Shown here in pieces: positions 15,001 to 18,000 of a stretch of 36,735 nucleotides of DNA. The position numbers were made by a program. Source of the stretch: a virus (lineage: Duplodnaviria; Heunggongvirae; Uroviricota; Caudoviricetes); IMG/VR virus record IMGVR_UViG_3300045988_080861, positions 1-36,735 of that record; one strand, given 5' to 3'. Numbering within the stretch: the stretch's first letter is position 1; the number at the start of each line of letters is the position of its first letter.

Positions 15001-18000
15001 TGACTACTTCACCGGAGAACTTCAGCATCGCAACAGCTTAAGTGCGCAGCTCAATATGAAGTGTCATGAGTTTGATCAGAAAAAAGATATGGCGAGCTTC
15101 TGTGGACAAGGGCTGGCGGCATGGCGCTATACGAAGCCAGTGTTGGTCGCTGAGATTAACTCCCTGGCTAACCAGCTGCAGATAACGATCCCCGGGCTTC
15201 CGGGATGAGTGATCGTGTCATTGAATGCGCTTCCAGAGCGGGGCGCGACTTCTCAGAGTTCATGAAAGGCGAGAAGGGCATGATGGAAGCATTGGCCTCG
15301 GTGGATGAGTTTGGCGAGCAGCTGCGCCTCAACGGCTGTGTCAATCATCACTTTGTTAGCTACATGATGCGGAACTCGATCATGCAGGCATTCATGGACA
15401 TGGCAAAAGCCGAGAGGAAAGAAGAGCGCCGGCGTAAGCGAGCGGAAGCAAAAGCGAAATAGCCATTACAAAGCCCATCTACGGGTGGGCTTGATAATGA
15501 AACCGGAATTTATTCTGGGTAACCAGTTACGGCAGTACAGCGAAACAACCCAAGCCAGAAAGTGGGGAAATAACACTGGCAGCCACTGAAAGATGAACCT
15601 CCTGCCTTATGGCAAAAAAAGATTCTTTGTGGTGGCGGACTGATGGAAAGACATCGGTTATTGCAGAGACCATTCAATGAGTGGTCTCGACAATGGCTTA
15701 TACCCTACACGGGATAACTTAACTGATATCCCTTTTAACGGATAAACGGAGCCAACAATGGCAGAGAATGTCGGCATTATGGCAGTGAAATTTGGATAAA
15801 TCGGGGATTAGAAAGATAGAGGCGAGCCGGTCAGGTAGAAATGAATCAGGCTCAAAGTGAAGCGGAAAAGGTCTGTGGCACAAACTGATGCTGCCATAAT
15901 TACAGCCTGATGACTTGTGGAATGAAACATGTTGAACCTCCTTAATTGATGTGATTCGAGTGAGGAAGGCATTCTGTCCTTCTATAGTGTCCAGTAAATC
16001 AAACAGGAAGCTTGTCTCACGTGTGAGACAAGCCTCTCCATTAGCGAGTTGTATTGATTACAACTCTTCAAAGAGTTCATTACTGGGTAGATGAAAATAG
16101 TTTCACGACGAATGGAGGAGACTATGTCGGTGGCTTCTTCATTGGAGTACATATGCTCCCTCGAACCTCAAAAGCATGCCGAGTTCGCGGCTGCCGCCAT
16201 ACCACCACAGATCCGTCAGGCTATTGCAAAAGCCACAAAAGCGAAGGCTGGAAGCAATACAAGCCGGGCCAGTCCTGTCATCAGCGCGGTTATGGTTCGC
16301 GAGGTTGTCCCTCATGCTCGCCAGTCCTGTGCGGGGGTGGAAGAAACAGGACACTCACACAGATTCTTGTGGGTCGATGCTATTCCTTTCTGGATTATCC
16401 CGATGCCATTCATGCAAGGGCTGTATAAGACGTTCGTCATGGCTGTCAGGCTGACGGGTCCTCCCGGTGGGGTGGCCTGCCACGGGGCGGGAGCGTCGCG
16501 GAAAAAGGCTAGTTTTTGCATTTTTATCGGCCACCATCATCTTTGCATCTTATTGATTATTAATGGTTATTTGTTTTTTGCATGTCGAATTGAGTGTTTT
16601 TTGTTCGACATCGAACGCGTTTTCTTAAAGTTGTTCGCACGATGCATGTTTAAAGCTCTCCGGAGGAAATATGGATCATGAGTTGAAAAACCTGGTGCTG
16701 AATATTAATCAACTGGCGGCTTTATCTGGTCTGCACCGCCAGACTGTCGTGGCAAGACTGAAAAACATTCGTCCCGCTGGTGGACATGACAAACTCAAGC
16801 TATACCGGTTGACCGATATTCTGACTGAATTTATGGGGTTACCACCGCCGGTTGCTGAGGGCGAAATGGATCCACATGAACGCAAAGCCTGGTATCAGTC
16901 TGAACGTGAGCGTCTTAAGTTCGAACAGGAAACGGCACAACTCATTCCGGCCAGTGATGTCAGACGGGAGTTTGCCATCTGGGCAAAAGCGGTCGTGCAG
17001 GTGCTGGAGACATTACCGGATATTCTGGAACGTGACTGCGGTCTGCAGCCTGCCGCTGTGAGCCGTGTTCAGTCCATTATTGATGATCTGCGCGATCAGA
17101 TAGCCCTGCGGGTGACCGAAGCAGGTGCGGATGATGAGGAGGAATTACAGCAGGAGGAGTAATGCTGAATCAGGAAACCGCAAAGGCAGCACGAACCGAT
17201 TCAGGTTATATCCTTCGCGCACCGAGACGAATGCGGGTTGCTGATGCCGTTGCTCAGTATATGCGGGTGCCCATGGGGGCAGGGAACTCAGTCCCGTGGG
17301 ATCCGCTGGTGGCACCGTATGTTATTGAGCCGATGAACTGCCTGGCCTCGCGTGAATACGACGCAGTGATATTTGTTGGCCCGGCACGAACCGGCAAGAC
17401 TATCGGCCTGATTGACGGCTGGGTGATTTACAACGTGATTTGCGATCCTGCTGATATGCTGATCATTCAGATGACGGAGGAAAAAGCCCGCGAACACTCC
17501 AAAAAACGACTCGCCAGAACGTTTCGCGTCAGCCCGGAAGTGGTCAGTCGCCTGAGTCCGAACAAAAATGACAACAACGTTTATGACAGAACATTCCTTG
17601 CTGGTAACTACCTGAAAATCGGCTGGCCGTCAGTCAATATCATGTCCTCATCAGATTATAAATGCGTCGCGCTGACGGATTATGACCGTTTTCCGGAAGA
17701 TATTGATGGCGAGGGGGATGCTTTCTCTCTTGCCTCAAAACGTACCACCACATTTATGTCCAGTGGTATGACGCTGGTGGAGAGTTCCCCCGGCAGGGAT
17801 GTGAAGGATGTGAAATGGCGACGGACTTCACCGCATGAGGCTCCACCAACCACGGGGATCCTGTCGCTCTATAACCGTGGTGATCGCCGTCGCTGGTACT
17901 GGCCCTGTCCACACTGTGGTGAGTATTTTCAGCCCTGCGGCGATGTGGTTGCTGGTTTCCGTGATATTGCCGATCCCGTGCTGGCAAGTGAGGCGGCTTA

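Follow-up and report, generated by a model that had tools for sequence, protein, structure and literature searches.

The 1.2 kb at 15463–16670 separate a gene of 85 amino acids (aa) from the gene of the small terminase subunit (terS) in a window of 36,735 nucleotides (nt), which is the whole stretch of DNA analysed and covers positions 1 to 36,735 of IMG/VR virus record IMGVR_UViG_3300045988_080861 (Caudoviricetes). The stretch belongs to a lambdoid prophage. Pairwise BLAST against relatives from phage and E. coli collections resolved it into a mosaic of three parts with sharp boundaries: a non-coding spacer (module A), a block resembling Shigella phage SfIV (module B), and a segment carrying a predicted lambda-type cos that leads into terS and the gene of the large terminase subunit, terL (module C). 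We conclude with high confidence that this is the boundary between the lysis and packaging modules, and that it contains a lambda-type cos, gene remnants, and a probable small conserved gene on the minus strand. Most of this is ordinary, being a cos of the lambda family at a module boundary scarred by recombination; neither the cos nor the HNH endonuclease scar beside it is of a new kind, and public phage records already contain identical sequences. The main candidate for novelty is the small gene on the minus strand, taken together with its leader hairpin; a conserved non-coding core in module A comes second. As the preliminary description of this DNA had noted, no long conserved open reading frame (ORF) lies between the 85-aa gene and terS. 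The stretch is indeed poor in ORFs, but it is not free of genes, since an HNH fragment with 86% identity to SfIV gp54 lies within it.

Each part of the mosaic has its own set of relatives. Module A is 95–99% identical to about 200 records of P22-like and lambdoid phages, and its homology ends at 15767; DNA homology to SfIV begins at 15769, with module B being 85% identical to SfIV and 94% identical to phages of the vB_EcoS-640R1 type. Module C, compared over 16285–16900, is 86% identical to mEp460 and 98.7% identical to PhiR40_1, a phage record whose host is listed as ECOR13 and which carries the same cosB and terS as the window, with 100% identity over 16485–17160. Unlike the window, mEp460 and PhiR40_1 are without the whole SfIV-like module, 15747–16284 being missing from them altogether. 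This boundary would have been built in a lambdoid prophage by at least two recombination events, and it contains one essential cis-acting site.

That site is the predicted cos. The GC-rich motif at 16484–16501 (GGGGCGGGAGCGTCGCGG), previously singled out as cos-like, is assigned to cosN by its alignment with the joined ends of lambda, and the ends of the cdtI and Tritos records agree with this placement. In the alignment, ACGGGTCCT, which includes cosQ, is followed by CACG/GGGCGGGAGCGT/CGCGG, compared with ACG/GGGCGGCGACCT/CGCGG in lambda (slashes mark nick positions), so that the CG dinucleotides flanking both nick positions are those of lambda. The cohesive end matches that of lambda at 8 of 12 positions, with positions 1–6 identical and positions 7, 8, 9, and 11 different. 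Predicted nicks follow 16484 in the top strand and lie opposite 16496/16497 in the bottom strand. The gap from cosQ to the nick is 22 nt versus 23 nt in lambda, and terS starts 186 nt past the predicted end versus 190 nt in lambda. The GenBank records of cdtI (AB285204) and Tritos (OV696610) both start with GGGCGGGAGCGTCGCGGAAAAAGGCTAGTTTTT, which corresponds to window base 16485, and the last base of the Tritos record is the equivalent of 16484. The motif cosQ itself is invariant in 21 of 21 distinct cos sequences, and the core from cosQ through cosN to the I2 counterpart is essentially invariant over the same sequences, being identical or nearly identical in cdtI, Tritos, mEp460, and PhiR40_1. 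This single core is followed by one of three cosB types (window/PhiR40, mEp460, and cdtI), each paired with its own terS allele; cdtI and Tritos differ from the window in both cosB and terS allele.

The nested inverted repeats at 16582–16616, including GTTCGA-CA-TCGAAC at 16603–16616, are present as previously described and would fall inside cosB. Three repeat copies in inverted and direct orientation, ATGTCGAA, the inverse TTCGACAT, and TTGTTCGCAC, are proposed as candidate TerS sites, placed where lambda has R2 and R1; the repeat block differs among the three cosB types. A candidate IHF site (AATCAATAAGATG) has one mismatch to WATCAANNNNTTR, and its core ATTGATWWTTA recurs in all three cosB types, of which the mEp460 and cdtI types match the IHF consensus perfectly. 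The TerL protein matches the Pfam families GpA_ATPase and GpA_nuclease at E values of 1e-72 to 1e-86, which points to a packaging enzyme of the cos-cutting lambda gpA type. In the mechanism that we propose, TerS would bind the cosB repeats, aided by an IHF-induced bend, and would place the GpA-type TerL for staggered nicks at cosN that yield 12-nt 5' ends of sequence GGGCGGGAGCGT, whereas cosQ would signal nicking of the downstream cos at the end of packaging.

Several points weigh against this assignment. The nick positions are predictions, and the points at which the cdtI and Tritos records start could themselves have been chosen to follow lambda. The mEp460_4F5 record begins 5 nt earlier and is without 3 nt inside cosN. 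Neither class of motif is enriched in the window, where TTCGNCAY has 13 matches versus 12.2 expected and the IHF consensus has 28 sites versus 32.7 expected; the weight of the TerS-site and IHF motifs therefore rests on their position and conservation. Additionally, TerS matches DUF1441 and no other small-terminase family in Pfam. As a separate observation, cosN in mEp460_4F5 (LR595868; positions 1–25 of locus L015) reads GGGCGGGAGCGCGG, which may be an artefact of end assembly or a real cosN variant.

The organization of the predicted cos is familiar from earlier work. In lambda, 21, and N15, a common core is accompanied by a cosB that varies alongside TerS; the 7-bp cosQ is highly conserved; and the cohesive-end variation of N15 and Gifsy-1 is limited to positions 7–12 (PMC4669245). 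With the lambda-like cohesive end group of Feiss (lambda, 21, phi80, N15, and Gifsy-1), the window shares cosQ GGGTCCT, a GpA-type TerL, and the restriction of variation to cohesive-end positions 7–12; as in lambda, the site lies about 190 bp upstream of terS and has a variable cosB that changes jointly with TerS. It departs from lambda at end positions 7, 8, 9, and 11, in a spacing from cosQ to the nick that is 1 nt shorter, in a TerS of the DUF1441 family, and in cosB repeats of another sequence, which are candidate sites only. Literature searches returned nothing relevant for the cohesive-end sequence and nothing for phage Tritos.

An HNH endonuclease gene reduced to its first 50 codons lies immediately upstream of the cos segment. 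Comparison with SfIV gp54 by tblastn aligned residues 1–50 at 86% aa identity and nothing beyond, and a match to the PHROG 144 HNH family (E = 7e-10) covers the N-terminal part only; the catalytic His-Asn-His domain gave no Pfam HNH match at 16153–16302. Past codon 50, the frame enters unrelated DNA and reaches a stop at 16428. A frameshifted gene was considered as well, and its C-terminal half was sought in 16300–16480; because tblastn found none there, the gene is truncated and not frameshifted. The fragment is a pseudogene that falls outside the functional packaging-type HNH endonucleases, and PGAP calls the same 150 bp 'HNH endonuclease, incomplete', a pseudogene, in near-identical E. coli prophages. 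Like HK97 gp74 and SfIV gp54, it occupies the place immediately upstream of cos and terminase, with its resemblance to gp54 confined to the N-terminal 50 residues; unlike them, it is without the catalytic HNH domain and stands beside a terminase of the GpA type.

The truncation coincides with the joint between modules B and C, placed by a three-way comparison of the window, SfIV, and mEp460/PhiR40_1 at a microhomology of about 17 bp. Among IMG/VR loci with module B, the 66 with a full-length HNH gene had no lambda-type cos within 1.6 kb, while all 21 of those cut at codon 50 were followed by one. The native context runs holin, endolysin, i-spanin, [small ORF], HNH, Terminase_4, an HK97-like TerL, and portal. 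In HK97-type terminases, the HNH protein gp74 promotes cos cleavage, in contrast to lambda, which encodes no HNH protein (PMC9410871); zinc ribbons occur at the termini of cos-adjacent HNH enzymes (PMC3592412), and it is this part that the fragment keeps. The middle of the stretch (15769–16299) would have come from SfIV/HK97-like phages, whose terminase uses an HNH partner protein, and the joining of this block through the microhomology to a lambda-type cos and terminase would have cut the HNH gene at codon 50.

On the minus strand of module B lies a 40-codon ORF (MFHSTSHQAVIMAASVCATDLFRFTLSLIHFYLTGSPLSF), whose AAGGAGG Shine-Dalgarno sequence and coordinates agree with the preliminary description. 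This ORF is uninterrupted in 106 of 106 loci representing 24 distinct DNA versions, and the arrangement AAGGAGG-N6-ATG is invariant among them. In codons 24–40, the ratio of non-synonymous to synonymous polymorphism (pN/pS) is 0.02, with variable sites distributed 1/1/6 by codon position. Counterparts of 37–40 aa, each with a strong ribosome-binding site (RBS), were found in SfIV, three Klebsiella phage lineages, and one Pseudocitrobacter prophage; these have a hydrophobic, non-homologous N-terminal half and a related C-terminus ending in ...YLTGSPLSF, ...YGVLPLSF, or ...ALPQSF. In Klebsiella, the small ORF is on the other strand from the late genes, with lysis cassettes of varied kinds on one side and a different packaging module on the other. 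The module carrying it occurs in 632 of 5426 complete E. coli genomes (~12%), where PGAP leaves the ORF unannotated. The peptides are hydrophobic (grand average of hydropathy 0.45–1.54). Searches of Pfam, PHROG, and NCBIfam with them gave no match, a word-index search returned only unnamed hypothetical proteins, a profile search of 1.84 billion representatives yielded only four real clusters, and a literature search on the peptide motif returned nothing relevant. Judged by these comparisons, the ORF is probably the gene of a real small hydrophobic protein; of the options raised earlier, cos and gene decay are borne out, a small protein is supported by comparison, and a small RNA would be no more than a possibility. 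Alignment with related prophages, as proposed earlier, found the cosQ–cosN core, the small ORF, and the hairpin considered below conserved among relatives.

The preliminary description had listed a 24-bp perfect palindrome with a CACGTG core at 16010–16033. This does not hold as worded, given that the reverse complement differs midway; the element consists of perfect inverted-repeat arms of 11 nt (GCTTGTCTCAC / GTGAGACAAGC) that flank the 2-nt spacer GT, and CACGTG (16018–16023) lies off the centre of symmetry. The arms extend to 14 nt with 93% complementarity (16007–16020 with 16023–16036). In a set of 11 distinct sequences, compensatory double changes (T-A to C-G, C-G to A-T, and G-C to A-T) occur at three to four pairs of the stem, and standard pairing holds in 94.4% of cells on the minus strand versus 81.1% on the plus strand, a preference that comes mainly from two outer G-U pairs and is the weaker for it. 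A terminator scan flags 16007–16036 on the minus strand, where 6 of 13 stem base pairs are G-C and the tail CUGUUUGAUU is moderately U-rich. Homologous hairpins (GGCTTGTC...) lie upstream of the Klebsiella small ORFs, without a U tail. Because the Klebsiella copies precede the small ORF and have a divergent neighbour other than HNH, the hairpin is assigned to the small gene. It may act as a terminator, an attenuator, or a 5' stabilizer, and would be part of the leader of the small-gene mRNA or an upstream terminator.

The leader that separates the small ORF from the HNH start contains a second hairpin. This hairpin shows one compensatory change (T-A to C-G in SfIV), and its one-sided changes are G-U compatible on the plus strand. 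With the predicted plus-strand fold of 15990–16160 at z = -4.35, this suggests that the HNH leader is structured too. In addition, at 16143–16165 (+), codons 2–3 are the predicted pairing partner of the GGAG RBS that belongs to the HNH remnant (GGAGUA-CAUA-UGCUCC), which would put the AUG where loop and stem meet; SfIV, with its intact HNH, shows weaker pairing. In several E. coli prophages (loci L002, at 3001–4347, L006, and L007), a 287-bp segment equivalent to window 15930–16216 is tandemly duplicated. It runs from the start codon of the small ORF through the leader hairpins to HNH codon 21, so that the hairpin region and the HNH 5' end are doubled.

Two readings would deny the stretch the organization set out above. 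One holds that all of it is inert debris of a cryptic prophage, with a dead cos-like motif and no selection. The presence of three truncated genes in 1.2 kb (the DUF2560 5' stub, the o-spanin 3' end, and the HNH 5' end), more than the decayed gene that had been suggested, and the pseudogene calls of PGAP would be in keeping with it. We regard this as highly improbable, because the cosQ–cosN core is essentially invariant across 21 distinct sequences with three cosB types, cos and terS are 100% identical to those of phage PhiR40_1, terS and terL are intact, and the small ORF, undisrupted in 106 loci, has a C-terminal pN/pS of 0.02. The other would make a real coding gene of the 196-aa ORF (16091–16681) or of a 124-aa ORF (16054–16428); both frames are long and open, and similar ORFs are annotated as hypothetical in mEp460 and PhiR40_1. 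Against this, the 196-aa ORF has no family match in Pfam or PHROG, and the two frames together have none besides the HNH N-terminus. Substitutions relative to L007, an 87% identical relative, are spread evenly over codon positions (19/17/24), single-base indels break the frames in mEp460, annotations in relatives place their ORFs in other frames and with other extents, and the 196-aa ORF overlies cosQ, cosN, and cosB. A coding role for either frame is thus extremely improbable, and the 196-aa ORF is an accident of open sequence.

The small ORF and its hairpin face competitors of their own. Conceivably, the minus-strand ORF is a chance frame, conserved through the o-spanin gene on the opposite strand, with selection acting on an RNA or DNA structure. 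Codons 24–40 are antisense to the o-spanin tail, so that part of the C-terminal conservation overlaps the o-spanin reading frame, whereas codons 2–23 have a pN/pS of 1.68; scanning and inspection by eye found no convincing sigma-70 promoter (best TTTACT-16 nt-CAGAAT, 8/12); there is no family match; and the ORF is present at only 1 of 16 more distant o-spanin loci. These points count against a small gene. However, the third positions of the minus frame in codons 24–40, where six of the eight variable sites fall, are second positions of the o-spanin frame and non-synonymous there, and the constraint on these codons is therefore not owed to o-spanin. The o-spanin is a broken stump here and in loci of the 640R1/L007 type, where the minus-strand ORF is still intact, and a strong RBS with ATG precedes an ORF of always 37–40 codons in five lineages with non-homologous N-terminal DNA. 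Among the 16 distant loci, o-spanin tails beyond IRKIE are otherwise variable and 15 are without the ORF, which speaks against o-spanin as the source of the conservation and also shows the ORF not to be universal. A chance frame is accordingly the weaker explanation, unlikely though still deserving of weight. For the inverted repeat at 16010–16033, the competing reading is a protein-binding DNA site of cos, either a terminase/IHF accessory site, as had been suggested, or an operator. In favour of this, the repeat is strongly symmetric, cosN follows about 470 bp downstream of it, and its outer CTTGTC...GACAAG half-sites are fairly conserved. It is nevertheless missing from PhiR40_1 and mEp460 despite the same cos and TerS, and it accompanies the small ORF in Klebsiella prophages with DUF2280 plus Terminase_6C or Terminase_3 packaging genes. 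Its inner stem positions covary (T-A to C-G, C-G to A-T), and the G-U compatible changes favour an RNA stem. We therefore consider a DNA-binding site improbable, although an operator for some other protein is conceivable; since relatives with the same cos are without the hairpins, these are not part of cos.

Table 1. Features in and around the boundary between the lysis and packaging modules (window coordinates)
Feature	Position	Strand	Remarks
Lysozyme gene	13542–14075		Upstream of the stretch
Rz-like gene	14057–14509		Upstream of the stretch
KilA-N/ORF11CD3 gene	14711–15208		Upstream of the stretch
85-aa gene	15205–15462		PHROG 875 (phrog_875); stop at 15462
Module A	15463–15767	.	Non-coding spacer common to P22-like and lambdoid phages; ends 10 nt into DUF2560 stub
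Conserved non-coding core	15527–15658	+	132 nt; predicted stem 15582–15593 / 15623–15635
DUF2560 gene, first 10 nt	15758–15767	+	ATGGCAGAGA; cut at the A/B recombination joint
Module B	15769–16299		SfIV-like; o-spanin 3' stump, 40-codon minus-strand ORF, hairpin, first 50 HNH codons
o-spanin (Rz1-type) 3' remnant	15769–15860	+	Compare SfIV tail ...QCNLDKAGIRKIEASRSGRSESGSK*
40-codon ORF	15930→15808	-	MFHSTSHQAVIMAASVCATDLFRFTLSLIHFYLTGSPLSF; AAGGAGG at 15943–15937, 6 nt before ATG
Conserved hairpin	16007–16036	-	13-bp stem, tail CUGUUUGAUUU; in 5' region of small ORF
Second hairpin	16046–16066	+	GAGTTGTA-ttgat-TACAACTC; leader between small ORF and HNH start
196-aa ORF	16091–16681	+	Not a gene; spans predicted cosQ, cosN, cosB
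HNH endonuclease pseudogene	16153–16302	+	N-terminal 50 codons; zinc-ribbon part CxxxxC...CxxH
B/C joint	16284–16300	.	~17 bp microhomology GCGGTTATGGTTCG, shared by HNH gene and mEp460-type DNA upstream of cos
Module C	16285–16670		Predicted lambda-type cos, then DUF1441 TerS and GpA-type TerL
cosQ	16456–16462	+	GGGTCCT; packaging-termination signal by alignment with lambda cos
cosN cohesive end	16485–16496	+	GGGCGGGAGCGT; predicted 12-nt 5' overhang
I2 counterpart, by position	16497–16517	+	CGCGGAAAAAGGCTAGTTTTT; between cosN and cosB, common to three cosB types
Candidate IHF site in cosB	16546–16558	-	AATCAATAAGATG; one mismatch to WATCAANNNNTTR
cosB repeats, candidate TerS sites	16582–16589; 16604–16611; 16631–16640		ATGTCGAA; inverse TTCGACAT; third copy TTGTTCGCAC
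terS	16671–17162	+	DUF1441 (Pfam); PHROG 141 'terminase small subunit'; ATG at 16671
terL	17162–19264	+	700 aa; GpA_ATPase and GpA_nuclease (Pfam); inferred to act on cos

The remaining gene fragments (Table 1) would be debris of the recombination joints. The o-spanin stump contains a TGA at 15786–15788 and has only its last 23 codons in frame, without a start codon or lipobox; in SfIV and in Klebsiella phages, the o-spanin is complete, has a lipobox (LLTGC or LLTAC), and ends at the equivalent of 15860. Having neither the lipobox cysteine nor an intact ORF, 15769–15860 is a remnant and not an o-spanin. The DUF2560 stub was identified by alignment with phage Dewey CDS0075 and SEN22_57.

Module A lies, in P22-like and lambdoid phages, between the 85-aa gene or a Rha gene and the DUF2560 gene, and its 132-nt core starts at the stop codon of the preceding gene. 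Over 112 distinct IMG/VR versions, most columns of the core are at least 90% conserved, whereas the flanks vary. In many copies, stop codons or shifts in run length between A6 and A7 interrupt both small ORFs of the core. The core occurs in 1120 of 5426 E. coli genomes (~21%), nearly always at 95% identity or more and mostly unannotated, and in more than 100 IMG/VR contigs. Its consensus fold shows only one-sided changes from G-U to G-C or U-A and no compensatory pair. Farther along, a 68-bp patch at 15679–15746 with an inverted repeat (15698–15716 / 15727–15745) is 93–94% identical to mEp460 and PhiR40_1, which are otherwise unrelated around it; the patch may be a module-boundary sequence used in recombination. 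Rfam 15 yielded no RNA family in 15300–16800 at E ≤ 1, apart from one spurious sub-threshold match to a eukaryotic long non-coding RNA, and a search of the entire window at the gathering score placed no family within the stretch before terminase. Elsewhere in the window, at 9302–9500 (+), Rfam matches above the gathering score comprise isrK (9315–9391, 78 bits) and C4 antisense RNA (9417–9500, 64 bits), with a c4 a1/b1 target at 9302–9354; the arrangement, upstream of an ORF at 9553–10230, has the appearance of a P1/P7-style antisense module.

The small minus-strand gene would be autonomous and moron-like, and its product a small membrane protein. Phage morons include lambda bor and HK97 gp15, and type I toxins are small hydrophobic peptides with structured leaders. 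By analogy with both, the gene lies opposite the late operon between lysis and packaging modules, and a hydrophobic product of 37–40 aa and its leader appear to move as a unit between contexts; unlike either, the product has no sequence similarity to any of them. We tentatively suggest, with doubts that keep the idea from being a conclusion, that the small ORF and its leader hairpin form an unrecognized small-protein moron of enterobacterial prophages and, separately, that the 132-nt core could be a cis-acting RNA of the late operon. If so, the moron would combine an invariant C-terminal membrane segment with a fast-evolving N-terminal half, possibly under diversifying selection, and could function in superinfection exclusion or defence, modulate lysis, or be a type I-like toxin. 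In SfIV-type prophages with the small ORF (loci L259–L262, 5230–7123), a possible defence gene, whose product of about 1050 aa matches Metallophos and, weakly, NACHT, lies just upstream of holin on the opposite strand.

For the cdtI / mEp460 / PhiR40 group of phages with DUF1441 terminases, which includes some Shiga toxin-converting phages, the subsites of cos can thus be assigned by homology, and the long ORFs called across the region are, given this assignment, spurious. The recurrent PGAP annotation 'HNH endonuclease, partial' would mark a scar, left where an HK97-type packaging module gave way to one of the lambda type. What may be new is the unannotated small gene with its leader hairpin, which is widespread in prophages of E. 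coli and Klebsiella.

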